A stretch of DNA of 64,000 nucleotides, from assembly GCA_963837465.1 (NCBI GenBank), contig CAWINB010000004.1, positions 330,853-394,852 on the forward strand, given 5' to 3'. The DNA comes from Candidatus Doudnabacteria bacterium (GTDB lineage: Bacteria; Patescibacteriota; Doudnabacteria; UBA920). Of the stretch, positions 16,288-59,947 are shown piece after piece. Every line of letters begins with the position of its first letter. The stretch's first letter is position 1. Made by a program: the position numbers and the translations under genes. The notes below the pieces were generated by a model that saw nothing but the letters and a program-made list of their open reading frames with translations, ran no database searches and was not told the origin of the DNA.

Positions 16288-17872
<1,585 letters not shown>

Positions 17873-18137
17873 AAGGAACTTTTCTTGACTACACTGGTTT
17901 TCGAACTGTGTGTCAAGACATTCTGTTGGTCGTCGTCAATTATTTCGATTTTTGACGCAATCCTTTCTCAATAAGAAACGACGTAAACGTAAGTGGTTTT
18001 GTATAGCGGTAATTCTACCCATATTTAGCAATAAATATGGGCCTGAGCGCCTTTAATGCTCGGGGTCACTATTTAGCCGTTAAAAAACGGAAATTGCAAT
18101 TAAAAAGCCTGACTTCTACTACTGAAGTGAGGCTTTT
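17873..18137 (+). repeat. element-arm repeat copy 1 (structured ~265-nt arm between the 16S-end core and integrase A1)
   Basis: Shares the blocks ggtcgtcgt, acgacgtaaac, ggtaattctacc, a hairpin ccatatttagcaataaatatgg, gcgcc.ttaatg.t.gggg.tcactatttagccgtta, gaaattgcaa and a terminal hairpin with the copies at 34676-34942 and 47733-47996. Confidence 0.65.
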
Positions 18138-19121
18138 ATGTTTTATAAGGAAAGTGTCGTAGAAACATCTACGAAAACCGACAGTAGGGTTTTGCCATCG
18201 TCCCCGGCTGTTTACAGCCCAAAGATGAGCGAGTTGGTTGATGGGTTTTTAAAGCACGGTCAGTTTGATTTAAGCTGGTCGGCTGGGACAGTCGCAAAAT
18301 ACGGTGAGTGTTTACGGATGACTATTCGGGACATCGGCGATTTGCCGGTAAATGAAATCCGTTTGGTTCACCTTACGGAATTAAAATCTAAAATAATAAT
18401 GCGCGGAGCCGGAGAGTCCAGAGTCGGCTCAATGGTTTTTGCGTTAAAAAGTTTTTTAAAATACTGCAAGGAAATTGTGGAGTTGGATGTGCTGGACTTT
18501 AACAAGATTACCCCGCCAAAACGCCATCGCCGGGAAGTGCTGTTTTTGACCAACGAAGAAATTCAGCGGTTTGTGGATGTTATAAAAATAAAAAATACCT
18601 GGGATGGGAAAAATAAAAAGAGTTGCGTCCGAATGGATGGTCTAAGGTTCAGGGCTTTGGTAGAAGTCTTGCTTGGCAGCGGTATGAGAATATCCGAGGC
18701 GTTATCGCTTAACCGGGGTAGTATAAATTTTGAAAAGAAAGAGGCAAAAATTATCGGTAAAGGTAGCAAGGAACGCACGGTATTTTTTAACGATCGTTCG
18801 TTGGAATGGGTTAGGTATTTATTGGAAGAAAGGAAGGACAGTCACGAACCTTTATTTCTTTCCCAAAAAGGCAACAGGTGGGATAAGGGAGAAGTTAATA
18901 AACTGTTTCAGCGTTATACTAAAAAAGCGGAAATCACCAAAAAATTAACGCCCCATATTCTGCGGCATACTATGGCCACAAACTTACTTTTTAACGGTTG
19001 CCCGATTTCCCACGTCAAAGAAATTTTAGGCCATGATAGGCTGGAAACCACGTGCCGCTACTATCTGGGTTTGGACAAGAGTAAGGCCAAGGAGGCTCAC
19101 GAAAAATTCTTGAATTATTAA
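18138..19121 (+). CDS. tyrosine recombinase/integrase, A-type paralog 1
   Basis: 327 aa: R...HxxR (HILRHTMATNLL)...Y (TTCRYYLG). ~60-70% similar to the recombinases at 34943-35929 and 47997-48968. Confidence 0.9.
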   Translation: MFYKESVVETSTKTDSRVLPSSPAVYSPKMSELVDGFLKHGQFDLSWSAGTVAKYGECLRMTIRDIGDLPVNEIRLVHLTELKSKIIMRGAGESRVGSMVFALKSFLKYCKEIVELDVLDFNKITPPKRHRREVLFLTNEEIQRFVDVIKIKNTWDGKNKKSCVRMDGLRFRALVEVLLGSGMRISEALSLNRGSINFEKKEAKIIGKGSKERTVFFNDRSLEWVRYLLEERKDSHEPLFLSQKGNRWDKGEVNKLFQRYTKKAEITKKLTPHILRHTMATNLLFNGCPISHVKEILGHDRLETTCRYYLGLDKSKAKEAHEKFLNY

Positions 19122-19169
19122 AAAAATTTATTGAATAAATAGCTCAATTTCGCTATAATTAGAATAATT

Positions 19170-19365
19170 GAATAGGTGCCTAACCCCATGGCTAAAACTA
19201 TGGGTATGGTAGAAGTAAAGAATCCTCAGCTACGTAAAGACGGTCTCTTAACCGCTCTCGTAGCTGAGGTGCGTGCGAAAGCATGCGGTGGTGTCGAAAG
19301 GCACTGCTGCGGTTGGGAGGCCCTTTTTGTATCCAACCGCAATTTAAAAACCTCAGCTACAACAA
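19170..19365 (+). promoter_or_regulatory. highly structured leader upstream of the Type III mod gene
   Basis: Series of hairpins: cccatgg...ctatggg; an 11-bp stem cctcagctacg...cgtagctgagg; GNRA-type loops gcgaaagc and tcgaaagg; gcggttgg...ccaaccgc. A second cctcagctac copy abuts the start codon. The 65-aa ORF here is probably spurious. Confidence 0.3.
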
Positions 19366-21255
19366 ATGAATAACAAATCACTGATTTTTGAATTGCCCAA
19401 AATTGTGGAAGAGGGCAAAAAAGAAGTTGAAAAAATATTGGAACGGCTTTCCAGTCAAAGTCGGTTAGGTTTGCAGACTAATGAGCTGGTTCTACCGGCA
19501 AAAGATAGTGGCGGGCTTTTTCGCGGGCATATAGCAGAACAGAAAAACAATGAGTGGCTGAATCGCTTAATATATGGCGATAATTTGTTAGCTATGCAGG
19601 CTTTGCTTTCCGGCGATGAGCAGAGCGGTCTTGCCAGTATGCGTGGGAAAATAGATTTAATTTACATTGATCCACCGTTTGATAGCAAAGCTGACTACCG
19701 CACAAAGGTTACCTTGCCTGGCGTGGATTTGGAGCAAAAGCCAACAGTTATAGAACAATTTGCATACGCCGATACTTGGAAAGATGGCACCGTAAGCTAT
19801 TTGAAAATGCTTTATCCTCGTCTTGCTTTAATGCGCGAGTTGCTCTCCGAACAAGGCAGTATTTATGTGCATATTGATTGGCACGTCGGGCATTATGTAA
19901 AAATTTTACTTGATGATATTTTTGGAAAAAATAATTTTAGGAACGAAATAATTTGGTGGTATCTTTGGGGAGGAAGAGGTAAGACACAATGGAATAGCAA
20001 ACATGATAATATTTTATTTTATTCCAAGGATAATAATTGGATTTTTAACTTTAAGGATGTATTAGATGATCACAATTTAATGACAGAAGGGTCAAAAAAT
20101 AGGTTGAATTACAAAGGTGCGATGGTAACTACCAAAAGCGAATCCTCAGAAATACCCGAAGATAAAGTGCTGCCTTCTGATACTTGGTATATAGCAACCA
20201 TTAATGCAATGGCAAAAGAAAAATTAAATTATGGTACTCAAAAACCAGAATCTTTGGTAGAAAAAATAATCAAAGCATCTTCAAATGAAAATTCCATTGT
20301 AGCAGATTTTTTTGCGGGGAGCGGGACAACTGGAGCGGTGGCGGAAAAACTTGGACGGAGGTGGATTATGTCGGATATTGGCAAGCCAGCGGCTTTGATA
20401 ATGCGCAAACGGTTAATTGACCAAAACGCCAAACCGTTTTTGTATCAATCCATCGGCGACTACCAAAAAGAAGCGTTTACCTCCTCAAAGTTATACCGCC
20501 GGGTTGGCGACCTGGCCCAGGTGGTATTGCAACTTTACGGCGCAATCCCTTTTACAGAAGACCAAAGCCAAATGCGAAATTTGGGGTATATAAAAGACAG
20601 TAAAACTTTGGTAATGGTGGATTCGCCGAATAAAATGACCGGCCTTGCCACGCTTAAAAAAGCGCAGGAGCTTAAAGCCAGTTTTATGGGCGGATTTAAC
20701 AAAGTGGTGGTCTTGGGCTGGAATTTTACTTTTGATATTACCGAAGCTATTCATTCGCTTAACGATAAAAGCGTGGAAGTTTTAGTTATACCCCCGGATC
20801 TGTTAGATAAGTTAAAGAGCAAAGCTGATTACAAAGACTTGATTGACAGCGGTAAAATTCGTTTTTCCTCTTTGCAATATCTGACTTTAAAACCAATTAC
20901 GGTAAAAATATTGCCGGATGATAAAGAACAGTTGCATGTTGAATTAGATAATTATGTTTTACTTTCCCCAGACAACATACCTTTGGACGAAAAGGACAAG
21001 GAAAAATTAAAAGAAGTCATTGCTAAAGATCCATTGTCTTTGGTTGAATATTGGAGCATTGATCCCGATTATGACGGAGTTACTTTTCGCAGCCTATGGC
21101 AGGATTATCGGGAAAATGAAGACAATGACGCAGAGCCTTACCATGTTGTAAAATCGGTAGATTTGACTGTCCCCAAAAAGAAAGAAAAAAGAATTGTATG
21201 CGTAAAGGTCGTGGATGTTTTTGGTTTTGAAAGTATTGCGACCGAGGAAGTTTAA
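19366..21255 (+). CDS. mod: Type III restriction-modification methyltransferase (Mod), beta-class N6A/N4C MTase
   Basis: 629 aa. [12 protein letters not shown] (motif IV, DPPF) precedes [23 protein letters not shown] (motif I, FxGxG); central variable TRD. Confidence 0.85.
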
Positions 21256-21258
21256 CAT

Positions 21259-24171
21259 ATGCCATCACCAATCAGCATAGGCACAAGGGACATTCCCTTA
21301 AAACTTGCCAAGACAATTAGTGAGAAAGTAAATTTAGCTTGGGACAGTGGAGAGTTTTTAGACAAGACCACGGCCGTTACTCAAGATTTGCTAAAATTTT
21401 GGTTTACCGAACCACACATAGAAAACCGATATATTAATTTTCACTCCGGCCAGCGCCAGGCTATTTTAAACACCATTTATTTGCACGAAATTTTAAGCAC
21501 GAAGTCCGTTAAAGATATTTACGAGAACATAGAATTTGAACTGTTGCCGGAAATAGACATAGCCGAGCTAAAAAAGCCAAAATACGAAATTCCCAAATAC
21601 GCTATTAAGATGGCAACCGGGACGGGCAAAACATGGGTGATGCACGCCTTGTTAATTTGGCAATATCTAAACGCCAAATATGAAGCCCAAAAATCAGGAA
21701 AGTTTTCCAAGAACTTTTTATTAGTCGCCCCCGGCATAATCGTCTACGAACGGCTGCTGGATGCTTATTTGGGTAAGGAAAATGAAAATCGGGAACGCCA
21801 ATTTGAGCAATCTGATTTTTACCAGTTTAAGGATTTGCTCTTGCCTCCGGCCTTTAGGGAAGAATTTTTTGGCTTTATCCAGTCGGCCGTAGCCAAGAAG
21901 CAGGACATCGGCAGCAAGGTGACTGGTGACGGCCTGATCGCCATTGCCAACTGGCATTTATTTATGGGGGAAGAAGAATCGGAAGACAAACCCGTTTCGC
22001 CATTAGACAGTCCACAACAAATCCTCAAAGACATCATGCCAATTCGGCCGGGAGTATCCGGCGGCAATTCTTTGGATGCTTTAGATAGTGCCTATTGGGG
22101 CGGCAAGGAATTGGATTATTTGGCCAATTTGCCGGATTTAGTTTGTATAAATGACGAGGCACACCACATCCACGAAAATAAAACCTACGGGGAAGTCAGC
22201 GAGGTGGAATGGCAAAAGAGCTTGAATAAAATTGCCGCCTCCAAAGGCCATAAATTCATGCAGATAGATTTTAGCGCCACCCCTTACGACGTAACCGGCA
22301 GCGGGCAAAATCGTATCAAGCATTACTTTCCCCACATCATTGTGGATTTTAAGCTAAAGACGGCCATAGACGGCGGCTTTGTAAAGACCATAGCCATAGA
22401 CAAGCGCAAGGAACTTGTGGATTTGCCTTTAGACTTTAAATCGGTACGGGACGAAAACAATACCGCTATTGCGCTCTCGGACGGGCAAAAGCTGATGATC
22501 CGTGCCGGATTAAATCGATTAAAAATTCTTGAAACGGAATTTGTTAAATTCACTAAAGATGCCGATGGGGTTTCCAATAAATATCCCAAAATGTTGATCA
22601 TGTGCGAGGATACTAAAGTTACGCCATTGGTTGAGGCTTTTTTTCTGGACGAAGGCTTAAGCGAGGACGAGGTGCTTCGGGTAGATTCCAATAAAAAAGG
22701 CGAGATACCGGAAACGGAATGGAGAGAACTTAAACAAAAATTATTTAATATTGATAAGCATGATAAGCCTAAAGTTATTATTTCCGTGCTCATGTTGCGT
22801 GAGGGTTTTGACGTAAATAATATCTGCGTTATTGTCCCGTTGCGTTCGTCCGCCGCCCCGATTTTGCTGGAACAGACTATTGGCCGTGGTTTGCGGCTGA
22901 TGTGGCGGGAGCCGGAATATCGTGAAGCCAAAATGGACAATATCCGGCAATTGATAAAAGAAAAACGGGAACCGCAAAACTTGCTGGACTTGCTGTTTAT
23001 TGTTGAGCATCCGGCGTTTTTGCAATTCTATGAGGATTTAGACAAAGAAAGCATCGTAGAAGTTGGTGACATACCAGAGGGAGGGGTGTTGGGGGAAATT
23101 ATTAAGGTTGGCTTAAAACCCGACTGGCAAAAATATGATATGTATTGGCCGATCATCTTGCGTGATGCGGAAGATGAAATGTCCGGCAGCCGTCCGCCGG
23201 TTGAAAAAATGGAAAAATTTACCGTTTATGCGTTGGAAGATTTAAAGAAGTTTTTTCATAAAGGCGGCGAAAAATTCGTGTCCGAGGAGTTAACCGTTAA
23301 AACCCGTTTTGGGGAGTACATGGTAGATGCCAGCCTGTTTACTTCCCAAAGCTATAATGAGTATTTGCAGAAAATAATCCACGCAGTAGTCAATAGGACG
23401 GCGAAGACAAGTGCACGTGGGCATAAAGTTTACCCGACGTTACAAATAAACCAACTGCAATTAGTTGAAGCTTTGGATTTTTATATCCGCAATCTGTTGT
23501 TTGGTAACTCATATGACCCGTTTGTTGATAATAATTGGAAAGTGCTTTTACTGAAGAATGGCGTTGTTACCCAGCATATCGTCAAAGAGGTGGGCAAACT
23601 AATTTTTGAAATGCAGAATAACACTACCACGAGCGAGGCATTGGTAGAAAAGCGCCATTTTGCCGAAGTGGACAGTTTGAGGATGAGGGAAAATTATTCC
23701 TTGCCGATTGTAAAAACTATTTACGAAAGATTGCGCTACCCTTCTAACAAAGGCGGTTTTGAAAAAGACTTTTTAAGCTATGCGGATGGCGACGGGCAGG
23801 TGGAGGCGATAATTAAAATCGAAGAATACCAGCACACCTTTGCCGTTATCAACTATATGCGTTCCGATGGTTTTCTCGCCCAATACCACCCGGACTTTTT
23901 AGTGCAGGCGGTCAATAAAATCTATGTTATTGAAACAAAAGCCGACAAAGACATTGACGATAAAAATGTCCGGCAAAAGCAGCTGGCTACGCTGGATTGG
24001 ATTAAGCGGATCAACGGGTTAAAAACCGAAGACAGATTAAAAAAAGAATGGGAATATGTTTTGCTAGGTCAAAGCAATTTTTACGGTTTAAGCAAAAACG
24101 GGGCTTCCATAACTGAAATTTGCGAATTAGCCAAGGTTAGCGAGGCTGCGGTGACCGGCAGGCTACTTTAG
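21259..24171 (+). CDS. res: Type III restriction enzyme Res subunit (SF2 helicase plus PD-(D/E)xK nuclease)
   Basis: 970 aa. Walker A MATGTGKT; DEAH box INDEAHHI; C-terminal HPDF...VIETKADKD. Start 4 bp after the mod stop. Confidence 0.85.
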   Translation: MPSPISIGTRDIPLKLAKTISEKVNLAWDSGEFLDKTTAVTQDLLKFWFTEPHIENRYINFHSGQRQAILNTIYLHEILSTKSVKDIYENIEFELLPEIDIAELKKPKYEIPKYAIKMATGTGKTWVMHALLIWQYLNAKYEAQKSGKFSKNFLLVAPGIIVYERLLDAYLGKENENRERQFEQSDFYQFKDLLLPPAFREEFFGFIQSAVAKKQDIGSKVTGDGLIAIANWHLFMGEEESEDKPVSPLDSPQQILKDIMPIRPGVSGGNSLDALDSAYWGGKELDYLANLPDLVCINDEAHHIHENKTYGEVSEVEWQKSLNKIAASKGHKFMQIDFSATPYDVTGSGQNRIKHYFPHIIVDFKLKTAIDGGFVKTIAIDKRKELVDLPLDFKSVRDENNTAIALSDGQKLMIRAGLNRLKILETEFVKFTKDADGVSNKYPKMLIMCEDTKVTPLVEAFFLDEGLSEDEVLRVDSNKKGEIPETEWRELKQKLFNIDKHDKPKVIISVLMLREGFDVNNICVIVPLRSSAAPILLEQTIGRGLRLMWREPEYREAKMDNIRQLIKEKREPQNLLDLLFIVEHPAFLQFYEDLDKESIVEVGDIPEGGVLGEIIKVGLKPDWQKYDMYWPIILRDAEDEMSGSRPPVEKMEKFTVYALEDLKKFFHKGGEKFVSEELTVKTRFGEYMVDASLFTSQSYNEYLQKIIHAVVNRTAKTSARGHKVYPTLQINQLQLVEALDFYIRNLLFGNSYDPFVDNNWKVLLLKNGVVTQHIVKEVGKLIFEMQNNTTTSEALVEKRHFAEVDSLRMRENYSLPIVKTIYERLRYPSNKGGFEKDFLSYADGDGQVEAIIKIEEYQHTFAVINYMRSDGFLAQYHPDFLVQAVNKIYVIETKADKDIDDKNVRQKQLATLDWIKRINGLKTEDRLKKEWEYVLLGQSNFYGLSKNGASITEICELAKVSEAAVTGRLL

Positions 24172-24192
24172 CATTATGGATTGTAAAAATTT

Positions 24193-24369
24193 ATGTCACA
24201 TGAAGATTTAGACATTGACGAGTTCAAAAGAATTTTTGGAAAGTATTATGACAAGCCGCTTTCCGACCAAGATGCATATGAAGGCGCTTATGATTTGCTT
24301 AACGCTTTTAAATGGTTAGTAGATCAGGACGAAAGCAACAATCTAAAAATTCAGCCAAAAACTAGATGA
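24193..24369 (+). CDS. small hypothetical protein, paralog family member 1 (58 aa)
   Basis: MSHEDLDIDEFKRIFGKYYDKPLSDQDAYEGAYDLLNAFKWL... Not in the ORF track (<60 aa). Related to the next two small ORFs. Confidence 0.35.
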   Translation: MSHEDLDIDEFKRIFGKYYDKPLSDQDAYEGAYDLLNAFKWLVDQDESNNLKIQPKTR

Positions 24370-24533
24370 TTTCTCAAGAAGCGTTAGAAAAATATAAGGC
24401 TATTTACAAGGAAGAGTATGGTGCGGATATTTCAGACGCAGAAGCCTTGGATTTGGCCGTCAATCTTTTAACAATGATGAACGCAGTATATCGGCCGATA
24501 AAAAAAGAATGGGCTGAAGATGCTGACCTTTGA
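24366..24533 (+). CDS. small hypothetical protein, paralog family member 2 (55 aa)
   Basis: MISQEALEKYKAIYKEEYGADISDAEALDLAVNLLTMMNAVYRPIKKEW. ATGA overlap with the preceding gene. Confidence 0.4.
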   Translation: MISQEALEKYKAIYKEEYGADISDAEALDLAVNLLTMMNAVYRPIKKEWAEDADL

Positions 24534-24560
24534 ATTTAACAATCAAATTTAGATAAATTT

Positions 24561-24698
24561 ATGAAGGTATTTATTAGGTTAGTGTTAGGCTTAGTGGCAT
24601 TATTGTTTATAACTTTTATGTCGGCTGCTTTTGGGATAGGCGGGTTTTTGTTCACGCTCGGTTTGTTTGCGGTTATAGTTTATGCTTTTGCTAGGTAG
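24561..24698 (+). CDS. small two-TM membrane peptide (45 aa)
   Basis: MKVFIRLVLGLVALLFITFMSAAFGIGGFLFTLGLFAVIVYAFAR. Confidence 0.3.
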   Translation: MKVFIRLVLGLVALLFITFMSAAFGIGGFLFTLGLFAVIVYAFAR

Positions 24699-24707
24699 CT
24701 ATTTTTT

Positions 24708-24893
24708 ATGATTTCAAAAGAGCATCTTGAAAAATATAAACAGATTTATAAAAACCGTTTTGGGAAAGAATTATCTAACCAAGAGGCTCTTGAGCAGGCC
24801 ACTAAGTTGCTTAGGTTAATAGAAATTATTTACCATCCCATGACCCAGGAAGAGCTGGATATGGTTAATAGGCGGAGACAGGAATTGGGTTAA
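24708..24893 (+). CDS. small hypothetical protein, paralog family member 3 (61 aa)
   Basis: MISKEHLEKYKQIYKNRFGKELSNQEALEQATKLLRLIEIIYHPMTQEE, clearly homologous to the protein at 24366-24533. Confidence 0.45.
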   Translation: MISKEHLEKYKQIYKNRFGKELSNQEALEQATKLLRLIEIIYHPMTQEELDMVNRRRQELG

Positions 24894-24899
24894 AAAGCT

Positions 24900-26114: not shown

Positions 26115-26139
26115 CAGTAAGTTATTTTGGGTGTAAAAT

Positions 26140-50382: not shown

Positions 50383-51003
50383 ATGCAGTTTTACGAACTT
50401 AAGGAACAATTAAAGGATTTTATGGTTTTTTCCTTAGCCGATATTCGGAAGGTAGAGCCGAAGTTTTACAGGCCACGCTTGAGTGAGTGGCAGGATAAGG
50501 GTTTGCTGAAGAACTTGCGCCGGGGCTTTTATATGTTCGCCGATACAAAGCTAAATGAAGAAACGTTTTTTTTAATCGCCAATAAGCTCTATGCGCCGTC
50601 CTACGTTTCCTTTGAAATGGCCTTGTCTTATTACAACTTAATTCCTGAAGGCGTATATTCCATAACTTCTGCTACGAGCAAGAAGACAGAAAAGTTTAAG
50701 ACGCCGGTTGGGGAATTTTCCTACCGCAGCTTAAAGCCGCAGCTGTTGTTTGGTTACAATTTGCAGGGCAACGGCAAGCAGCAATACAAGTTGGCGGAAA
50801 TTGAAAAGGCAGTTTTAGATTATCTTTACTTAAATCCAAAGTCTACCAGCAAGGCGGATTTGCAGGAGTGGAGATTTAATGCCCGGGAATTTTTAGCCCG
50901 AGCGGATATGGACAAGTTTAATAGGTATGTTAAAGTTTTTAATAGCCCAAGTTTGGAAAGACGGGCAAAGCAATTTATAAAGTTTATTAAGCAAGCACAA
51001 TAA
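50383..51003 (+). CDS. abiEi: AbiEi-like antitoxin/transcriptional regulator (type IV TA)
   Basis: 206 aa with a wHTH-like N-terminus. Immediately upstream of and overlapping (TAATG) the AbiEii gene. Confidence 0.5.
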   Translation: MQFYELKEQLKDFMVFSLADIRKVEPKFYRPRLSEWQDKGLLKNLRRGFYMFADTKLNEETFFLIANKLYAPSYVSFEMALSYYNLIPEGVYSITSATSKKTEKFKTPVGEFSYRSLKPQLLFGYNLQGNGKQQYKLAEIEKAVLDYLYLNPKSTSKADLQEWRFNAREFLARADMDKFNRYVKVFNSPSLERRAKQFIKFIKQAQ

Positions 51004-51779
51004 TGCTGACTTTAGAACAAATTGAACAGCAGTATCCGGAAAACTTACGAGGCTTTAAGCGTTCGCTGCTTCGGGAGTATTTGCAGTATAAGATTTTAGA
51101 AATTATTTTTGCCTCTGAGTATGCCACCAAGTTAGTTTTTATCGGCGGCACGGCTTTAAGGATAGTTCACGACAACAGTCGTTTTTCGGAAGATGTGGAC
51201 TTTGATAATTTCGGATTAACGGCAGCCGAGTTTGAGGAGACATCGCAAAAGGTTAAGGCAGGACTTACAGCGGAAGGGTTTAATGTTGAAATAGGCTTTA
51301 GGGGTAAGGAATCCTACCGCTGTGATGTAAAGTTTCCCGGCTTACTCTTTGGGAGCGGACTTTCGCAGCACGAAGGCGAAAAGATACTGGTGCAAATAGA
51401 TAGTTTATCCCAAGGCTTTAGCTATAAGCCTGAACGTAAGATATTAAACAAGTTTGATGTTTTTACGGAAATTTTTACCCCTTCGCCCGAGTTATTACTA
51501 TCTCAAAAGATTAACGCTATTTTTACACGGAAGCGGGCAAAGGGCAGGGACTTTTATGATGTTGTGTTTTTACTATCCTTTACAAAGCCAAACTATCAGT
51601 TTTTGACGCAAAAGTGGGGAATTGAGAATGGTGAGGGATTAAGAGCAAAGCTAATGGAAATGGCTTCCAAGCTCGATTTTAAGGATTTGGCACGGGATGT
51701 AGAGCCGTTTCTATTCAATCCGAGTGACAGTAAGAAGGTTGAGTTATTCGCGGATTTTATTAAGCAAGCTAAGTTGTAA
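51003..51779 (+). CDS. abiEii: AbiEii/AbiGii family nucleotidyltransferase toxin (DUF1814)
   Basis: ...VFIGGTALRIVHDNSRFSEDVDFD... matches the AbiEii NTase motif. Confidence 0.8.
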   Translation: MLTLEQIEQQYPENLRGFKRSLLREYLQYKILEIIFASEYATKLVFIGGTALRIVHDNSRFSEDVDFDNFGLTAAEFEETSQKVKAGLTAEGFNVEIGFRGKESYRCDVKFPGLLFGSGLSQHEGEKILVQIDSLSQGFSYKPERKILNKFDVFTEIFTPSPELLLSQKINAIFTRKRAKGRDFYDVVFLLSFTKPNYQFLTQKWGIENGEGLRAKLMEMASKLDFKDLARDVEPFLFNPSDSKKVELFADFIKQAKL

Positions 51780-51784
51780 GTTAG

Positions 51785-51865
51785 CAATTAATTGATCTTT
51801 TAAATTTTTAATACAGTAGTAGTTTGTCAGGCAATTTCCGTTTACAACGGCTCAGAAACACCTCC
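51785..51865 (+). repeat. right-arm repeat X copy 2 ending in CACCTCC (51859-51865)
   Basis: Near-identical to 34588-34670. Followed by ctccggctacag, similar to atacggctacaac after 46056. Confidence 0.8.
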
Positions 51866-52033
51866 CTCCGGCTACAGAAAATGCAAATACAGAAACTGTC
51901 CAAGAATGAAATCGCCCGCTCGTAATTGAGAGGGTTTTTGATTATAAGAGACCGATGGGTTGTGGTTCATGTTACCTCTGGACAGTTTTCGGCCGTAGGT
52001 TATAATTAAGGCAAGATATTAACTAATTATTAT

Positions 52034-52399
52034 ATGGGGACTTATGCAGGAGGCAGGCCAGGTGGAGAAGTTGACCCGGGGCTTATTGCCGGTCAAATTT
52101 TGGACAAATCAAAAAAAGGCGAAAGCAAACAGAAACAGCCTTTAGCCGAGGCTCTTGCTGATAAGGCATTATCGCGAGACCAGATGTTTCAAAAGCTGTA
52201 TAGTATGGTGCCAGCAATGGAACGCTATGCCGAATCACGGCTCGGCAGCCATAAAGCCAATGCGGCCGACATTGTGAGCAAGGCCATGGCCTACGTGATT
52301 CAGAGTGCAAGCGTTACCTTTTGGGTGCTTATTTCCGGAAATTTTTTTACGAAAAAACTTAATCAAAATCGCAATGTTCAAGAAATACGCGTGTTTTGA
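52034..52399 (+). CDS. hypothetical protein
   Basis: 121 aa ORF only. Confidence 0.3.
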   Translation: MGTYAGGRPGGEVDPGLIAGQILDKSKKGESKQKQPLAEALADKALSRDQMFQKLYSMVPAMERYAESRLGSHKANAADIVSKAMAYVIQSASVTFWVLISGNFFTKKLNQNRNVQEIRVF

Positions 52400-52558
52400 A
52401 ATTTTCATTTCAACACACACATATCCCTTGAAGCAACTTAACTAGTTAAACCACGATTTTTTGTCTTAATTGTGTTTTAAAAATACAATCTCACGCACCC
52501 AAAAGGTAACGCTCTCATTCAGAGTATAGATAACGGGGTTTTTCGGTTTAATGCGCCG

Positions 52559-52891
52559 TTGAGCAGTTGGTTTAAAATCTCGGTAAATGGGCGCATCCAG
52601 GATCGTTTTCGGTCGGCAACTAACGACCCCTTGGATCGAGCGGAAAGCATGGATGCGCCTATGGAGTCGGCAAAAGGGGATGAAAGCTATCGCCAGTATG
52701 CTGATTCTACTCCAAATATCGAGGAAAAGTTGGTGGCACAATCCAACGAACAGGCGCTTAAAAGAGGTATCGCCGTGCTCCTAAAACAGAACCAAAAACT
52801 TGGCGACGTTATGAGTTTGGTTGCCGACGGTTTAACCAACCAAGAAATCGCTGAGCGGCTAGGCGTTAATAGCAACCAAGTCAAAGTATAA
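52559..52891 (+). CDS. LuxR/GerE-type HTH domain protein
   Basis: C-terminal ...LVADGLTNQEIAERLGVNSNQVKV is a typical LuxR-family HTH. Confidence 0.5.
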   Translation: MSSWFKISVNGRIQDRFRSATNDPLDRAESMDAPMESAKGDESYRQYADSTPNIEEKLVAQSNEQALKRGIAVLLKQNQKLGDVMSLVADGLTNQEIAERLGVNSNQVKV

Positions 52892-52965
52892 TGGACTGGG
52901 AATCCTGTACAGGTATATTAGATAGAAAATCGGGGGTATAATACTGTCAGGAAGGAATAACAAAA

Positions 52966-53256
52966 ATGAAAAAGGTGTTTACCCCGCAGCAGAAAGCTGC
53001 GGTAGCCCTGGAGGCCATTAAGGGCGAATTAACAATTGCACAGATTGCCAGTCAATACGAAGTTCATCCCACTCAGATCGCAGTCTGGAAGAAACAGGCC
53101 ATAGAGATTTTAAAGGCCGGCTTTACCGATAAGCGTAAAAAGGAAAATTTTGACCAGCAGAGGATAACTGATGACCTCTACAAGACCATCGGCCAGCGCG
53201 ACATGGAGCTGGCCTGGCTTAAAAAAAAGTTGCAGCCATTTGGACTTTCAGACTAA
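52966..53256 (+). CDS. IS3-family transposase OrfA (HTH)
   Basis: MKKVFTPQQKAAVALEAIKGELTIAQIASQYEVHPTQIAVWKKQ...LKKKL; ends in an A8 run (53221-53228). Confidence 0.8.
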   Translation: MKKVFTPQQKAAVALEAIKGELTIAQIASQYEVHPTQIAVWKKQAIEILKAGFTDKRKKENFDQQRITDDLYKTIGQRDMELAWLKKKLQPFGLSD

Positions 53257-53705
53257 ACAGAATTTAATTATTCCCGGTCTCCAAGGCCTTTCCATTGCCA
53301 GGCAAGCAAAGCTCCTTAATATTTCCCGCTCCGGTTTTTACTACAAGCCCGCGTCCCTAAGCCCTGAAGAAATTCGCATCATGGGCTGTATAGATAAAAT
53401 CTTTACCGATTGCCCATTCTACGGCTCCCGCAGGATCAAGCACGAGCTGGAAAGTCAGCCGTACAAAATTTTCATCTGTCGAGAGCATGTGCAACATCTT
53501 ATGCGCCAGATGGGACTGGAAGCTATATATCCAAAAAAAATTACTACCATACCTAACCTGCAGCACCTTAAATACCCCTACTTGTTAAAAAATTTGCCTA
53601 TTGTGAGGCCTAACCAGGTCTGGGGCACGGATATTACCTACATTAAGCTACTCGGCGGCTTCTGTTATTTAGTCGCCTTACTGGACTGGTTTTCCCGATA
53701 CGGGG
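53222..53705 (+). pseudogene. IS3-family transposase OrfB, 3'-truncated (only the start of the DDE core retained)
   Basis: ...YGSRRIKHELE...RPNQVWGTDITYIKLLGGFCYLVALLDWFSRY, then unrelated sequence. OrfB lies in the +1 frame relative to OrfA across the A8 run (canonical IS3 uses -1). Confidence 0.65.
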
Positions 53706-54229
53706 AATATAGGGATACAAAAAATCAACCGTACATAGAACTGCAAAAATCCGGGTGGAAAGGTGAATTAGGTCAAGAGCTAAAAAATAGATTTAGCTCT
53801 GCCTCTGAACAATCGCATGCAAACTTGTTTAAAATGATGTTTTGGAGAGGCTCAAGAACAGAAAAAGAAAATGGTCAATTTAAGATAGTAGATCGTTTTG
53901 AATTTTTTGACAATCCAAACCCGCCAGATTGGATGATAACTAACCTCCACTGGCTGATAGACACCTCTTTTACCATACTGATTTTGTTGTCAGAAACTTT
54001 TCAGGAACCTCAAAAAAACAGTGATTTTAAAAAAGCAGTACAGACTAAATATTCAAAGTATAAAAAATACATACTTGAGAACCAGGACAAAATATTGATT
54101 AGACATAAGCTCACATATATTCCAGAAGAAGAAGTTTAATTTTTTGGTCAAACTCCACTGTCGATATTTTATAATTGATTTGTTATGACCGTTGGTTGTT
54201 TTTTAAAATTTTTGTTATAGTTTTATCGG

Positions 54230-54480
54230 AGTAGTGAGAGTTGGTGTTTTTAGCCCTTTTGGCTAAAACACTGCCGTGTAATAAGTCCGCCATCCGCCTT
54301 GTGCGGTGGATTTGCCCGAGTAGGGTGAAAGGTGCGGTTAAAAGCGGCAGTGGCTTACGGGTCCACCAAGAGTTCAGCCGAGCAATAACTGGAGCAAAAC
54401 CGAGGGCTGGAAAGCGAAATAGGATTTTCCTCTCGCTTGCTACTCCCGCAAAGAACTTCCAATTTTGGGAGTTTTTTGTT
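54230..54480 (+). ncRNA. candidate structured small RNA (unclassified)
   Basis: Hairpins gtgtttttagcc-cttt-tggctaaaacac; 8-bp stem cactgccg...cggcagtg enclosing GNRA-like loops; ends ctccc...gggag followed by TTTTTT. The 83-aa ORF here has an implausible composition. Confidence 0.2.
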
Positions 54481-54525
54481 TTTAAACAATAGGGAATATG
54501 GAGGTATTGTTATAAACACCTCATT

Positions 54526-55152
54526 TTGTGGTATAGTATAGGTATGAAAATGTTGCTTGAATTTGACTACAAAAAAGCCACCCAAGCGATAAACTACCTC
54601 ACAAAAAAAGAGGGCGGACAGATTGATAAACTGAAACTCATTAAGCTTGTCTACCTCGCAGATAGGTATCACTTGCGGCGATATGGTCGGCCGATGGTCA
54701 ACGATGCCTATTTTGCCATGCCTCTCGGCCCAGTTGGTTCATCCGTAAAAGACATTGCGGAGTTTTCTGGTTTTCTTGATGGGTCAGAACTAACCTATGC
54801 TGTAACATATTTGGGACGCGGGGGCGTTGAAAATACAGTGGTGTCCATAGCAGATGTTGATACGGGAGTTTTTTCAAAGAGCGAAATCGAAGCTCTTGAT
54901 TTTGCCTATAATGAGTTTGGCGGACAATCAGCCCCGTCTTTAGTAAATATTACACATCGCTATCCGGAATGGGATAAATTTAAGAGTGCGCTCCAATCAA
55001 AAGAAACAACCCGTGAGCCGATGTCTTATACTGATTTTTTTAAAAACCCCATCAATGGGACAGAAGATAAATTTGTCCTCTCAAGTGACATACTTGCGGC
55101 TTCCAAAGAACTTTTTGATGAAGACTACAAGATTGCCGAATACTGGAGATAA
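54526..55152 (+). CDS. Panacea-domain (DUF4065, SocA/PanA-like) putative antitoxin
   Basis: ...LKLIKLVYLADRYHLRRYGRPMVNDAYFAMPLGPVGSSV... matches the DUF4065 core. Confidence 0.6.
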   Translation: MWYSIGMKMLLEFDYKKATQAINYLTKKEGGQIDKLKLIKLVYLADRYHLRRYGRPMVNDAYFAMPLGPVGSSVKDIAEFSGFLDGSELTYAVTYLGRGGVENTVVSIADVDTGVFSKSEIEALDFAYNEFGGQSAPSLVNITHRYPEWDKFKSALQSKETTREPMSYTDFFKNPINGTEDKFVLSSDILAASKELFDEDYKIAEYWR

Positions 55153-55173
55153 ACGGGATAACCGATATACGGA

Positions 55174-55627
55174 TATGAAAATCCCAGCGCACATTCGCAT
55201 TTTAGCGACAATACAACCTGGCTCGATTTATTATTTTGAAGAAGAGCAACTCTCTTCACCAGAGCCGCACTACTTCATAGTTTTGAATAAAGACCCGCTC
55301 ACAGAGGAATTTCTTATTCTTGTTTGCGCTTCTTCCCAAGTTGAGAAGCGTCGGCAGATAGCAATAAAGCTGGGCTTTCCAAAAGAAACTTTGGTATTTG
55401 TATCACCATCCGAATGCTCGCTTTTCACAAAGGATACCGTTATAGATTGCAACAGGGTTTTTGAAAAAACTTCGCAGTCTCTCATTGAAAAACTTGAGCA
55501 AGAGAATCTCAAAGTATGCGCAGAAGTAATTGCCACAGAGATTATCGCCAAACTGATACAGGGAGTGTTGGCAAGCTCGCAAGTATCCGAAAAGATACAG
55601 CAATTACTCTTAAATCATACCAACTAA
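55174..55627 (+). CDS. candidate toxin partner of the Panacea protein (MazF/PemK-like SH3-barrel pattern; tentative)
   Basis: ~151 aa from MKIPAHIRIL... (the track ORF starts earlier at 54986). ...GSIYYFEEEQLSSPEPHYFIVLN...LILVCASSQ...CSLFTKDTVIDCNRVFE loosely follows the MazF pattern. Confidence 0.35.
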
Positions 55628-55655
55628 GCCCCGGGCTTAAAAATCCTATGCATAG

Positions 55656-55982
55656 TCAGCCAGCGTAAACTTTAGCAAACCTTGTTCGAACCTCTCTGCA
55701 GGTGGCGAGCCACATGGGACGAACAACCTCGAAAGAGGGGGTTCGTCCTTTGTTTATCGATGGATTCTTTTGTTCGAACCTTGCAGATGCCTTTGGTTCT
55801 TGCTTGATGCCATTTTTTATTATTTCCAGCTCTTCAGGCAAGCAAACATTGAGGATTTTGTTGATTAGGGTTGTGTTCGAACCTAATTCCGAAAGTATCT
55901 CTCGTTTCTTTTTAATATCGCCGTGCTTCAACAAATATTTGGCTTGGAACACAAAATCACCGTACGGCAGTGGCGACACCAA
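55656..55982 (-). CDS. hypothetical protein
   Basis: 108 aa ORF; a competing + strand ORF overlaps; uncertain. Confidence 0.25.
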   Translation of the reverse strand: MVSPLPYGDFVFQAKYLLKHGDIKKKREILSELGSNTTLINKILNVCLPEELEIIKNGIKQEPKASARFEQKNPSINKGRTPSFEVVRPMWLATCREVRTRFAKVYAG

Positions 55983-56587
55983 ATTGTAGTAGAACCTAAA
56001 TTAACAAAATAAATCTCTCTTGCCTGAAGAGAGATTATTGGTGTTAGTTTTGGTTTTGGTAGATTTTTTGGTTTAGCCATTGGCTTGGACAATTTTTTGC
56101 AGATCGAGAGGTTCGTCTTTTTTTGCGTTTTTCATTGGCGCGGTATCGTATACATATTTAAGCAACGAATCCAAGGTAAACGAACCAAACTGTTTTATTA
56201 TGGTATCAACGATGTCTTTTTTTACCGGTGCTATATTCAACTCTACTGGCTTGCCGGTATATTGGAAAAGAAAATAGACTTCATCGGGATGGGATACTTT
56301 ATTTTGTTGTTTGACCTCAATAAATTTATGGGCTTCAAGTGGGCACAGTCATAGTTGAAAGTCAGGGATGAAAAGCAATTCCGAAGCACCAAGTTTTTGC
56401 CAGCCGGGGCCGACATAAAAACTTCACAGTTCATTTATGGTAATACCCTGGCTATTATTTCCCTCAATAAGCGCAAGCCCGTAGCCATAATCATGGAAGA
56501 CCCGGATAGTGGATGTTACCAATCTGCCGCGAGGAACCTTTATTGAATCGTGTTATAATAAAGGAAATTAACCCATTAGAAATAAAT

Positions 56588-57043
56588 ATGAAAATCCATA
56601 CCCAGACTGATAAAGAGAGGCAGCAGCAGTTAAAGCTGTTTTATGATTTCATAAGATCGCACAAGCTGGCGGTTATGGCTACGGTAACCGGAAGCGCTTT
56701 GCCTGAAGCTGCGGTGGTAGGCATTGGGGTGGAGGAAAACTTGCAATTGCTTTGCAGCACTTTCAGCACCTCCAGGAAATATGAAAATATTAAACTGAAT
56801 CCGAAAGTCGCGTTGGTCATTGGCTGGGAACACGGTAAAACGGTGCAGTACGAGGGGACGGCCGAGGAGTTAAGTATTGAGCAGGCCGAAGAAAATCCGC
56901 TGCGGGACGGATTGGAAAAAATACCGGCCATTGCCAAGTATGTACAAAGGGAATACGGCGTGTTCTATAAAATTAAGCCAGAGTGGGTTAGAATGAGCGA
57001 TTTATCGGTAGACCCATGGGAACGGTTTGAAATTAAGTTTTAA
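56588..57043 (+). CDS. pyridoxamine 5'-phosphate oxidase-like FMN-binding split-barrel protein
   Basis: ...LAVMATVTGSALPEAAVVGIGVEENLQLLCSTFSTSRKYENIKLNPKVALVIGWE... Start set at ATG 56588; the track ORF begins at 56513 upstream of a TATAAT. Confidence 0.65.
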   Translation: MKIHTQTDKERQQQLKLFYDFIRSHKLAVMATVTGSALPEAAVVGIGVEENLQLLCSTFSTSRKYENIKLNPKVALVIGWEHGKTVQYEGTAEELSIEQAEENPLRDGLEKIPAIAKYVQREYGVFYKIKPEWVRMSDLSVDPWERFEIKF

Positions 57044-57080
57044 CTAAAAATAATTAAGAACCTGTTTTAAAACAAAACAT

Positions 57081-57638
57081 ATGAACGAAACACAAAATGT
57101 TGTGCAAATCCCCGAGCCGGCCTTGTCGCGGTTTTTATTCGCCGACAGCCGCTTTGCCTGGTTCTGGCTTATCGTCAGGTTGTATGTCGGCTGGCAGTGG
57201 CTTTCGGCAGCTTGGGAAAAATTCAACAGCCCCATGTGGGTGGGTAGTCAGGCTGGTGTTGCCATTAAAGGCTTTCTTATGGGTGCCGTGCAAAAAGCTG
57301 CCGGAGCTCATCCTGACGTTTCCGGATGGTATGCTGCTTTTTTGCAGAACTTTGCCATTCCCCACGCCGCGGCTTTTTCTTATGTGGTAACTTATGGCGA
57401 ATTGTTGGTAGGAATTGCCTTGATTTTGGGCGTGCTTACGGGTATAGCGGCTTTCTTTGGCACGTTTATGAACTTGAATTATTTGTTTGCCGGAACCGTC
57501 AGCATCAATCCTTTATTGGCCGTATTAGGATTGTTCTTGATTTTGGCTTGGCGCACAGCAGGCTGGTACGGGCTGGACCGCTGGTTGTTGCCAACCTTGG
57601 GCACGCCTTGGCAAGCAGGCAAAATATTTAAAGGTTAA
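57081..57638 (+). CDS. DoxX-family membrane protein
   Basis: 185 aa, four TM segments, ...RLYVGWQWLSAAWEKF... DoxX pattern. Confidence 0.65.
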   Translation: MNETQNVVQIPEPALSRFLFADSRFAWFWLIVRLYVGWQWLSAAWEKFNSPMWVGSQAGVAIKGFLMGAVQKAAGAHPDVSGWYAAFLQNFAIPHAAAFSYVVTYGELLVGIALILGVLTGIAAFFGTFMNLNYLFAGTVSINPLLAVLGLFLILAWRTAGWYGLDRWLLPTLGTPWQAGKIFKG

Positions 57639-57678
57639 TAGGTTCTAGAAAAAATTAATCTTTACTATAATATGCAAT

Positions 57679-58470
57679 ATGCAACCATCCTTACAACAGC
57701 TTATAAACCTTAAAGACAAAACTGCCGTTGTTACCGGCGGCGCTATGGGCATTGGCTTTGGTATCGCGTATCGGCTTGCAGAAGCCGGAGCCAATGTAGT
57801 TGTCGCGGATATGAATGAGAAAGTTGGCAAGGCTTCAGCAAAGCAATTGGCTGATAAAGGCTGGAAAGCCGGCTTTGTCAAGGTTGATGTCTCTGATGAT
57901 TTGCAGGTAGGGGCGGCAGTGGAATTTGCCCGCAAAACCTACGGCGGCATTGATATTTTAGTCAATGACGCCGGCATTTATCCCATAGCTCCGATCATGC
58001 AAATGGCTGTGAAGGATTTTGAGAAAGTCCTTGCCGTAAATTTAAAGAGTGTTTTTCTTTTTACCAAAGCCGTGGCGCAAGTTATGATAGAGGACGGCAA
58101 GGGCGGTAAAATTATAAACATCACTTCCGTGGACGCTCTCCATCCTTCTTCGGTGGGTTTGGCTGTTTATGACGCTTCAAAGCATGGGCTGTGGGGTTTT
58201 ACCAAAAATACCGCCTTAGAACTGGCGCCGCATAACATTCAGGTTAATGCCATAGCCCCGGGCGGTATCGCTACACCCGGCACAGGAGCGGGCCAAGCGC
58301 AAACTCCGCAAATAGAGGCAGTCACCAAAGAATTTTTGAAAAAAATTCCCATGAAGCGCATGGGTGATCCCGACGACATCGGCAAAGTCGCCCTGTTCCT
58401 TGCTTCCGACCTTTCCAGCTACATGACCGGGTCACAGGTAGTGGTTGACGGAGGAGTTTTGCTGGCCTGA
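57679..58470 (+). CDS. SDR-family oxidoreductase (FabG-like)
   Basis: TGGAMGIGFGIA (TGxxxGxG), NDAG, YDASKHG (YxxxK), PG. Confidence 0.9.
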   Translation: MQPSLQQLINLKDKTAVVTGGAMGIGFGIAYRLAEAGANVVVADMNEKVGKASAKQLADKGWKAGFVKVDVSDDLQVGAAVEFARKTYGGIDILVNDAGIYPIAPIMQMAVKDFEKVLAVNLKSVFLFTKAVAQVMIEDGKGGKIINITSVDALHPSSVGLAVYDASKHGLWGFTKNTALELAPHNIQVNAIAPGGIATPGTGAGQAQTPQIEAVTKEFLKKIPMKRMGDPDDIGKVALFLASDLSSYMTGSQVVVDGGVLLA

Positions 58471-58489
58471 TAAATTATTATATAATCGC

Positions 58490-59072
58490 ATGACCGGCTA
58501 CAAAGATGTTTTGGGTATTGTTACTTTATTAATCGCAGTAGTCAGCTACAGTTTTTATTTTAAAGATGTCTTTTTGGGCCATACCAGGCCGCAGCCTTTT
58601 TCTTGGTTTGTTTGGTCAGTCCTTTCTGCCGTAGCCTTTGCCGGCCAAATTGCCTCAACTGCCGGGCCGGGCGCTTGGATTACGGGATTTACTGCCAGTG
58701 GTGTGCCTTATCATTTCCGTAATAGCTTCCTTTAAAGGAGCAACGCAATTTAAAATTTTAGACTGGATTTCGCTGTTTGCGGCTTTAGCGGCGCTCCTGC
58801 TTTGGTATTGTACAAGGCAGCCGGTTTTGGCAGAGATGTTGGTAAGCGCGGCTTATGCGCTAGGTTTTATCCCAACCATTGTAAAAAGCTACAACAAGCC
58901 CCAAGAAGAAACGGCTACCACCTTTGGGCTAAATTCCATTAAGTTTGGCATTTCCATTTTTTCCTTAACCGTTTTTTCCGTTGCCACCTGGCTGTATCCG
59001 CTGACACTTTTTGTCTTAAATGGTTTATTTGCCATTATGCTGTTAGCGCGCCGTCAGCAAACGGCTGGTTGA
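58490..59072 (+). pseudogene. membrane protein split across two frames (possible frameshifted gene)
   Basis: ORFs 58445-58735 and 58638-59072 overlap in different frames. Both are multi-TM and together resemble one ~200-aa membrane protein. Confidence 0.3.
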
Positions 59073-59168
59073 ATTAAAAGCAGGTTCTAGCTTAAAATCT
59101 GCCCGGCTATACGGAATATTGTGCCAAAGCGCATTGGTCCCTCATGTCGGCGATTTTCTAAATTAGTC

Positions 59169-59612
59169 ATGAATCCCATAATTTTCCTTATCCTCAATCT
59201 GGCTTTAGCCTTTTATAACGTCGGTACCATCTGGGCCATGGAAGTGGATATTTTCCGCTCCTGGAAACTTGCGGGCGCTGATTTTCCCAAAGTCCAGGAA
59301 GTTCACTGGCGAAAACTTCCTTATTGGGTTTTTGCTCCGGTAGTTTCGGCCCTTTTAGGCGGCATCGTGCTGGTTTGGCATCACCCGGCCAACTCGCCAG
59401 CTTGGGGATACTTCGGAGCTTTGCTGTGCCAAGCCGCCTCTTTAATTTTAACCGCCATCTTTTGGGGGCAGTGGCAGGCAAAGCTGTCCAAAGATCCGCT
59501 CGGTCCTAACTGTTTGTACTTGCAGAAAATTTTAGCCACCCACTGGATCAGAACCTTGCTTGTCAATGCCTATGCTTTTATCTTGCTGGCATGGATGGTA
59601 AAAATCATATAA
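59169..59612 (+). CDS. hypothetical 4-TM membrane protein
   Basis: Start taken at MNPIIFLILNL; the track ORF starts at 59121. Confidence 0.4.
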   Translation: MNPIIFLILNLALAFYNVGTIWAMEVDIFRSWKLAGADFPKVQEVHWRKLPYWVFAPVVSALLGGIVLVWHHPANSPAWGYFGALLCQAASLILTAIFWGQWQAKLSKDPLGPNCLYLQKILATHWIRTLLVNAYAFILLAWMVKII

Positions 59613-59889
59613 CCCGCGAAGGCTATTTAATGAAACAATAAAATCTAAATTACTAATCCAGAAAAGAAATTGCAGGCTTTAGGGACAAAGCGATCCACGA
59701 CTATGCCGGCCTTCATGCCGGGATAGTTTGGGAAACCATCCAAACGGATTTAAAACCACTACAAACAGCCTTGTTAAAAGTATCATAAGAGCTAAAAGTT
59801 GATATTTTTGACAGGCTGTTTTGTTTTCTCAAAAATGCTATAATGTAATTACTAATTGTTATCTCAACTGGAGATAAAAGCCTCTTTTC

Positions 59890-59947
59890 AAACTAAATAG
59901 TGACTCCTGCAACACAGTTCCTACGTCGGGGTGAACACCTCCTTTCT
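59890..59947 (+). repeat. distal junction of the array: inverted aaatagtgac box plus core CACCTCCTTTCT (59936-59947)
   Basis: cggggtgaaCACCTCCTTTCTttcgc. ggggtgaaca also occurs in repeat Y. aaatagtgac is the reverse complement of the gtcactattt box of the integrase-proximal arms. Confidence 0.6.

Follow-up and report, generated by a model that had tools for sequence, protein, structure and literature searches.

Mobile elements that integrate into tRNA and tmRNA genes encode a tyrosine recombinase at one of their ends, and the core of their attachment site matches a structural RNA gene at its 3' end, which is regenerated by the copy that the element carries. Repeated use of such a site produces head-to-tail units with core repeats between them and a cargo rich in defence and addiction genes. 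Tandem arrays of this kind are known from the ssrA-linked islands of Dehalococcoides and from the accretion of integrative and conjugative, integrative and mobilizable, and cis-mobilizable elements (ICE, IME and CIME) at one tRNA site. To our knowledge, the recognised classes of bacterial attachment sites (attB) are tRNA genes, tmRNA genes and a few protein genes, and rRNA genes are not among them. Here we analyze a stretch of 64,000 nt of a Candidatus Doudnabacteria genome (contig CAWINB010000004.1), hereafter the window, in whose positions all coordinates are given unless a related locus is named. The traits just listed recur in 42 kb of it, which very probably represent an array formed by accretion of site-specific integrative elements, with the 3' terminus of the 16S rRNA gene as their attachment site in this bacterium of the Candidate Phyla Radiation (CPR, or Patescibacteria). 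The original prediction, drawn from the letters of the window, was not aware of integrative elements that use this terminus as attB, and full-text searches of openly accessible papers gave us no account of elements that integrate there.

The logic of the array is that of the tRNA and tmRNA islands, and the novelty lies in the 16S 3' terminus as target, in the short Xer-like recombinases, and in an RNA module. More precisely, unlike in these islands, the recombinase of the array is a short Xer-like enzyme without a recognised arm-binding domain, each element has two recombinase paralogs, and a structured RNA of ~265 nt separates the core from the integrase. Elements that exploit Xer and dif (IMEX, such as the CTX phage and the gonococcal island) are similar in that the nearest models are XerA, XerC, and XerD, the core is short and partly palindromic, and the recombinases may act in pairs; dif elements are also known to stack in tandem at one chromosomal site. 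However, the proteins of the array score far below the Xer equivalog cut-offs, its recombinases are self-encoded instead of being those of the host, and its site is the 16S end. Integrons share with the array the division into units by a short conserved core, the lack of a recombinase in some units, and a hairpin-containing sequence before each core, whereas most units of the array are multi-gene, plasmid-like, and endowed with their own integrase, which is co-oriented with the site and lies downstream of it. Finally, rDNA-specific elements (the eukaryotic R1 and R2 retrotransposons, and the group I and II introns and homing endonucleases in CPR rRNA genes) also take the most conserved gene as a safe and universal target, but the array would do so by conservative site-specific recombination, at the extreme 3' end and not inside the rRNA, with no splicing needed.

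Core repeats and arms behind the 16S rRNA gene

The 16S rRNA gene of the window lies at 16287-17872 on the + strand and is full-length, with a match to the full Rfam model RF00177 (1274.6 bits, model positions 1-1533) at 16287-17870. Its 3' end is the putative attB, made of the left half-site and the core, and the core CACCTCCTTTCT is formed by the last 12 nt of the gene, the same 12 nt in which the 16S of Bacillus ends. Exact copies, all on the + strand, occur at 17861-17872 (junction B-O-P', attL-like), at 34663-34674 and 47721-47732 (both P-O-P'), and at 59936-59947 (P-O-B', attR-like). By chance 0.02 copies would be expected, and none of 100 shuffles reaches four. The recurrences that had been predicted at 47721 and 59936 are as described, and the one placed at 34664 starts at 34663. 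The region of the core reads as an imperfect palindrome (CTCCTT-TCT-AAGGAG). The gene itself stays intact and full-length beside the array of exact core repeats.

The first three cores continue as AAGGAA and a homologous arm (P') of ~265 nt that leads to an intact tyrosine recombinase gene, all on the + strand, as the original prediction had proposed and as the alignment of the junctions confirms. Arm 1 (17873-18137) starts with AAGGAAC, ends in a terminator-like hairpin with a T-run at the ATG, and precedes the Xer-like integrase 1 (18138-19121; PF00589, 9.6e-40). Arm 2 (34675-34942) precedes integrase 2 (34943-35929; 1.2e-39), and arm 3 (47733-47996) precedes integrase 3 (47997-48968; 2.3e-40). 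The scores of the three arms against R1, the covariance model presented below, are 256, 221.5, and 222 bits. The fourth core, in contrast, enters the unrelated sequence TTCGCACATTTTT..., the presumed native 3' flank of the 16S gene (B', 59948-60017, +), after which an LCP gene begins at 60018, 70 nt past the core. Housekeeping-like genes (LCP, ABC) had been expected to resume after 59947, and they do; core genes (SodA, RNase Y, YmdB, NusA) are also found 5' of the 16S gene.

Behind the 16S gene, we read the array as units A (17873-34662), B (34675-46056), b' (46057-47720), C (47733-51865), and D (51866-59935), followed by the native flank. We count in it three to five mobile elements, each with its own core copy, stacked directly 3' of the 16S gene. 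Elements A, B, and C each open with an arm and an integrase, and each holds a second recombinase paralog. The right ends are formed by P arms, also on the + strand, which contain hairpins just 5' of the core (read from the sequence) and end in ...AA immediately before the next core. Arm X (34594-34662) closes element A and is a 100% repeat of 51790-51858. The repeat extends into the core, such that 34594-34669 and 51790-51865, the arm X' of element C, are identical over 76 nt. Arm Y' (45833-46056) closes element B and is 77-84% identical to the stretch 47496-47727, which starts with arm Y (47496-47720) of unit b'; both kinds of right-arm repeat had been noted before and hold up in the alignment. 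Arm Z (~59890-59935) closes unit D and contains TAAATAGTGAC.

Two junctions depart from this scheme. Arms Y' and X' end in the partial cores CACCTCC at 46050-46056 and 51859-51865, which the original prediction had seen as well and which are followed by ATACGGCTACA and CTCCGGCTACA. They have the same form, P arm, CACCTCC, (A/C)T(A/C)CGGCTACA, and constitute the left ends of b' and D. The junction CACCTCC|nTnCGGCTACA is hence a recurrent type in the window, where it bounds integrase-less units, and no further example of it was found in any of the loci we fetched. The sequences from the truncated cores onwards are ACCTCCATACGGCTACA (46050-46067) and ACCTCCCTCCGGCTACA (51859-51876), a motif that we take to resemble the reverse complement of the helix-45/1492R region of 16S, CACCTTCCGATACGGCTACC. 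Given these junctions and the homology breakpoints in relatives described below, strand exchange would take place at or just 3' of CACCTCC. If so, the anti-Shine-Dalgarno CCTCC would be derived from the host, and the element would give only the last ~5 nt and the trailer. The original prediction had argued that each insertion must reconstitute the anti-Shine-Dalgarno; in this refined reading, the CCTCC would never take part in the exchange.

Since the repeated sequence is a 16S end, one may ask if these are remnants of duplicated rRNA operons or of internal transcribed spacers, or an assembly chimera formed through 16S-like repeats. AAGGA is a common start of native spacers, and a repeat such as X and X', identical over 76 nt, could confuse short-read assemblers. 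However, there is no 23S, 5S, or tRNA gene anywhere in the window (Rfam, ARAGORN), nor a second 16S gene; a single rRNA locus is usual in CPR genomes. ARAGORN also gave no tRNA or tmRNA in the window or beside the cores of 30 loci. To the left of the internal cores, no sequence resembles 16S, and assemblies made independently show the same architecture, with contigs as long as 949 kb. The arms of the window are only ~60-75% identical to one another and are therefore too divergent to cause mis-joins. Spacer sequence, which the original prediction had itself named as the finding that would overturn it, is in consequence not what the repeats represent, and we regard the operon, spacer, or chimera explanation as hardly credible.

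One observation concerns the other end of the 16S gene. In a locus with the YmdB-NusA-ClpP-16S synteny of the window (L254; the L numbers designate loci), a copy of CACCTCCTTTCT and its near-complement ACGGTGTAGAAAGAGAGGT are found at 8299-8345, directly 5' of the 16S start. This leader copy forms a hairpin and could also pair with the 3' tail of the 16S; the leader in the window is without such a copy.

Elements of the same family in other genomes

A scan for integrase homologues, with one genome per species, gave 79 loci. In ~20 independent CPR loci, the 16S gene ends 200-330 nt 5' of a homologous integrase, or the contig starts within the last ~50 nt of the 16S gene; a break inside the 16S tail is the usual breakpoint of metagenome assemblies. 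Four contigs (JARLHZ010000016, CAWBGV010000028, JBAZXV010000002, and CAYODY010000011) have a second core-preceded integrase 17-33 kb 3' of the one adjacent to 16S. Relatives with a 92%-identical integrase 1 beside their 16S gene carry different cargo past position 19209.

Three assemblies (L251, L252, and L253) encode an identical integrase protein, P0014. In L252, 1,012 nt of 16S lie upstream of the core (blastn gives a match at 1-1024 that runs through the core), whereas in L251 and L253 an unrelated P-type arm and other open reading frames (ORFs) precede the core of the same element. Between L252 and L251, identity is 99.9% across 9,840 nt, and the homology sets in with the first base of CACCTCC. 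Judging by these alignments, L252 differs from the other two by an insertion polymorphism whose breakpoint lies at the core. Two assemblies that share one 16S-adjacent element (L246 and L245) are 100% identical over 9,963 nt and split abruptly after ...GATAAGCTATTA (~9963 and ~10378, respectively); no core is present where they part, and this is either an assembly join or a polymorphism of another kind.

Elements also change places. Arm 3 of the window with its integrase (47721-49411), which is internal, is 89% identical to the 16S-adjacent arm and element of a Doudnabacteria metagenome-assembled genome (MAG; L009), and arm 1 (17873-18793), which is adjacent to 16S in the window, is 85% identical to the second element (L018) of the array of that genome, on CAWBGV010000028. 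The 16S genes of the window and of CAWBGV010000028 are only ~81-89% identical. These swapped positions, at 85-89% identity between elements, show that the elements move between positions and lineages. In line with the original prediction, the ~20 loci adjacent to 16S, the polymorphism at the core, and the exchange of positions favour serial integration at the 16S end with P-O-P' junctions. Group I or II introns occur near the 3' parts of 16S in three loci (L009, 2071-2566; L012, 2921-3013; L026, 3418-3496), and their presence in integrase-flanked 16S genes of CPR relatives indicates that several kinds of mobile elements share one rRNA gene.

Family members outside of CPR look different. The core, as CACCTCCTTTCTA[AG]GGA, lies 150-340 nt 5' of homologous integrases in MAGs of Acidobacteria, Deltaproteobacteria, Arenicellales, and Methylobacillus, including multi-megabase contigs. 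There is no rRNA in 16 non-CPR genome loci (Rfam) and no 16S in 80 metagenome loci with flanks of up to 10 kb. In these loci (L164-L243 and L014-L076; for example L188, 8357-10942) two co-oriented Xer-like recombinase genes enclose the core and the arm, with defence-like cargo on both sides. Cores are 2.4-2.5 kb apart in L025, L029, and L183-L185, a spacing that suggests minimal two-recombinase units in tandem.

Several results weigh against the proposal that the array arose by integration at the 16S end. First, neither an empty-site allele nor a circular junction was found for this genome. An empty attB would read 16S|CACCTCCTTTCT|TTCGCACATT; a circular attP would read X arm|core|AAGGAACTTTTCTTGAC, Y' or Y arm|core|AAGGAATAAATATGC, or X' or Z arm|core|AAGGAACAATATGC. 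Second, the closest relatives of the LCP gene (73-75%; L080, L081, and L083) share this gene only, and their DNA upstream is unrelated and has neither 16S nor core. Third, the flank after the last core (TTCGCAC) is unlike the AAGGA right half of the element sites, which means that attB is asymmetric or that the flank is not the original one. Fourth, the junctions at 46050 and 51859 keep only CACCTCC, which a simple exchange between attP and attB does not explain. Finally, the non-CPR module is never adjacent to 16S (none of 62 core-bearing metagenome loci), and its site sits between two recombinase genes, the upstream one of which ends 100-160 nt before the core, such that the core-bearing site could there have resolution as its primary role. 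The non-CPR loci may correspond to junctions inside long arrays, to intact sites in elements that integrated in some other way, or to sites with another primary role.

This last possibility can be turned into an explanation of the whole family, in which the core would be a dif- or cer-like resolution or inversion site for an Xer-like pair on plasmids or ICEs, its identity to 16S would be secondary, and the 16S-adjacent copies in CPR would come from rare illegitimate events and subsequent inheritance. All 62 non-CPR metagenome loci, with the site between two recombinase genes and never beside 16S, are in line with this, as is the imperfect palindrome of the core. So is the complementarity between the two arms of a junction, expected of an intact unit. 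Segments of 8-13 nt in the P arms are complementary to conserved parts of P', such as TAAATAGTG to CACTATTTA, or GCAATTTC in arm X to the P' motif GAAATTGC. Of 90 P-core-P' junctions, 52% contain a complementary segment of this kind (8 nt or longer), compared with 18-21% in three controls (shuffled, direct-repeat, and permuted partners, the latter at 19%) and with none of the 16 junctions that have 16S on the left. In the window, it is found in the arms at 34594-34662, 47496-47720, and ~59890-59935, and the P' partners are TCACTATTTAG and GAAATTGCAA, ~+195 to +235 from the core. These segments could be either inverted protein-binding sites or the partners of a long-range pairing across the core. 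Yet the exact 12-nt 16S terminus is kept across hundreds of divergent elements, which is hard to explain without recombination with 16S and argues that the non-CPR modules too recombine with 16S ends. Moreover, adjacency to 16S in CPR recurs in many lineages with different elements, the polymorphism falls precisely on the core, and the PLSDB plasmids contain no member of the family. We thus deem a resolution site whose identity to 16S is secondary very unlikely.

Among other ideas on the arms, a tRNA-like nature of the P arms, some of which have a TCGAATC-like motif, was discarded, given that ARAGORN finds no tRNA in the 30 loci.

Recombinases, RNA arm and cargo

The five recombinases of the array are Xer-like, and their best NCBIfam models are XerA, XerC, and XerD, all with scores below the equivalog cut-off (177-197 bits for XerA with a cut-off of 220; 145-180 bits for XerC and XerD with cut-offs of 330-335). 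Invariant columns of catalytic type are found inside the PF00589 domain (R184, K208/K211, H273, R276, H299, and Y308/Y309), where the motif R-K-HxxR-H-Y was assigned by eye, and no arm-binding domain was recognised in these proteins. The family is large, with >1,498 homologues at E<1e-20, of which the named ones are from Patescibacteria and Doudnabacteria MAGs. The LCP protein of the window has a 100% identical match on a contig of 868 kb that also holds two of these integrase homologues, and the window thus probably stems from a near-complete CPR genome. Other members likewise carry two recombinases. A phage or plasmid origin was rejected: the best match in IMG/VR has 39% identity, without core association or a free form, and PLSDB has no match at E<1e-30.

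The content of the array exceeds what had been described by two further recombinase paralogs and an inverted, truncated one. In element A, the second paralog is at 27917-28885 (+; PF00589, 1.3e-40), and it has neither arm nor core upstream (no match to R1); that of element B is at 39633-40682 (+). In element C, the second recombinase (48956-49357, -) is truncated where a transposase of the IS256/Mutator family (49209-50210) begins. It is not clear that those at 27917 and 39633 are orthologues of the recombinase upstream of the non-CPR sites, a correspondence we did not retain, as they are closer to the downstream type. The integrase of L018 (4001-5167) is a hybrid, in which the N-terminal part of integrase 1 (window 18138-18793) is joined to the C-terminal part of the paralog at 27917 (window 28508-29064), followed by a diversity-generating retroelement (DGR). 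Hence, the recombinase paralogs are also substrates for homologous rearrangement, and ~9.7 kb of cargo, including the restriction-modification (R-M) and Rep genes, is lost or gained when paralogous integrase genes recombine with each other.

The sequence between core and integrase has features of a structured RNA. A multi-helix fold is predicted for nine arms (RNAalifold), and the covariance model R1, built from this fold, recovers the arm in full length at all three sites of the window and in ~20 loci, Acidobacteria MAGs among them. In the alignment, which was fitted to the covariance model and therefore somewhat favours structure, 93.4% of the cells are paired, compared with 78.5% in column shuffles and 35-50% with slid partners, and 26 of the 41 pairs show compensatory changes. 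On the + strand, G-U alternates with A-U or G-C in many pairs, an indication that the RNA has the sense of the 16S gene and of the integrase. Several hairpins close with TTCG or GCAA loops (read from the sequence), and the last helix is a GC-rich hairpin with a T-run that adjoins the ATG of the integrase, with no Shine-Dalgarno sequence. None of the 4,227 Rfam covariance models matches the arm, be it at the gathering threshold or at E<=1. On the strength of the model, the arm is a conserved sense-strand structured RNA without a counterpart in Rfam. Our best guess is that it would act as a substitute trailer and terminator of the 16S and also keep the expression of the integrase low. We dismissed another candidate role, a substitute processing stem formed with the 16S 5' leader, because the duplex energies are no better than those of shuffles (z from -0.5 to +1.4).

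Element A carries after its integrase a LOOT RNA (Rfam RF03000; 19177-19305, +) and a Type III R-M system (Mod 19366-21255, Res 21259-24171, +). Further on come a rolling-circle Rep-like gene (Phage_CRI/G2P; 26498-27703, +; PF05144, 1.4e-6), a DGR (29129-31717, +), and a BrnT/CopG toxin-antitoxin (33726-34272, +). The DGR comprises a target ORF (29129-29806) with the variable repeat at its 3' end (29654-29782), the template repeat (30148-30276), and the reverse transcriptase (30674-31717), and all 26 mismatches between the two repeats fall on adenines of the template. Element B encodes ParB (38583-39614, +), a Dcm methylase (40824-41861, +), and a restriction enzyme of the BsuBI/PstI type (41854-42873, +). 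Unit b' (46057-47720, +) lacks an integrase and has a HopA1-like gene (46125-47486) before arm Y. The remainder of element C (48956-51779, mixed strands) includes, next to the genes mentioned above, an AbiE-type toxin-antitoxin (50383-51779), and the integrase-less unit D (51866-59935, +) has a truncated IS3 transposase, SocA, PNPOx, DoxX, SDR, and others. The accessory nature of the cargo (R-M, toxin-antitoxin, DGR, plasmid-like genes, and insertion sequence debris) is as had been predicted. Insertion sequences and truncated genes are confined to the distal units C and D.

LOOT RNA, whose function is unknown, is a recurrent cargo of 16S-linked islands in several CPR genomes (L010, 7497-7614; L024, 7404-7518; L039, 5383-5513; L061, 7342-7459). 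The copy in element A is 3' of a promoter-like TTGAAT-17-TATAAT (19131-19159) and 5' of the Type III methylase, and the window has a second copy outside of the array (689-802), 5' of a gene with a bPH_2 domain. Two other genes lie on the left side of the window, a MazF/PemK-like toxin gene at the window edge (97-507) and a transposase of the rve family at 14183-15469 (-), ~800 nt 5' of the 16S gene and on the opposite strand.

Units without an integrase raise the question of an integron-like platform, in which one resident recombinase on the 16S side would use the core to capture units, with the integrases and arms further inside as cargo or duplicates. The stretches 46057-47732 and 51866-59947 are indeed cassette-like, bordered on the left by a P arm with CACCTCC and closed on the right by a P arm with a full core, there are hairpins in the P arms just before the core, and the recombinases have weak matches to integron-integrase models. 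These matches amount to 82-99 bits for TIGR02249, far from its cut-off of 265, and behind every full core there is a separate arm with an intact integrase. Depending on the genome, one and the same arm and integrase can be adjacent to 16S or internal, which fits autonomous elements, and units of 4-17 kb with replication and partition genes are not promoterless single-gene cassettes. An integron-like platform is in our view improbable, and we retain the accretion of integrative elements, each with its own site.

Proposed mechanism and implications

The left end of an element consists of the core CACCTCCTTTCT, AAGGA, and the structured arm of ~265 nt, followed by the Xer-like tyrosine recombinase. 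The body holds genes for defence, addiction, replication, and partition together with the second recombinase paralog, and a P arm forms the right end. In the mechanism that we propose, the recombinase, perhaps with its paralog as an XerC/XerD-like pair, would exchange strands between the P-core-P' site and the 16S end. The anti-Shine-Dalgarno would remain chromosomal, and the final nucleotides of the 16S would come from the element, together with a new trailer and a hairpin that resembles a terminator. As an occupied site keeps the half-site on the 16S side and the core, further elements could enter. New arrivals would do so beside the 16S gene, and older units would decay distally, an order consistent with the distal units being the most decayed.

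Tentatively, all these observations may be joined into a broader picture, which we consider possible while giving it clearly less weight than the account of the array itself. There would be a large and unrecognised family of elements with Xer-like recombinases whose attachment site copies the near-universal 16S 3' terminus, so that almost any bacterium would offer an attB. In CPR, such elements would pile up at the only 16S gene, form islands of defence and accessory genes, and separate 16S from 23S, thereby adding to the unlinked rRNA genes of these bacteria. The RNA arm would replace the trailer and gate the integrase, and the module of Acidobacteria and Deltaproteobacteria would represent the free or the accreted state.

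The 16S 3' terminus would constitute a new class of attB, one that overlaps the mature 3' tail bearing the anti-Shine-Dalgarno. The array adds an uncatalogued structured RNA linked to recombinases, and the near-invariance of the target in bacteria makes these recombinases attractive for broad-host-range integration tools. The elements account for the many MAG contigs that begin ~50 nt ahead of such integrases, and they mark a hot spot of horizontal transfer and of defence genes in CPR genomes. The rRNA genes of Patescibacteria are commonly unlinked, as described in a study that does not mention integrases or mobile elements (Brewer et al., bioRxiv 10.1101/705046). The arrangement of the array offers a testable mechanism for this unlinking of 16S and 23S in Patescibacteria.

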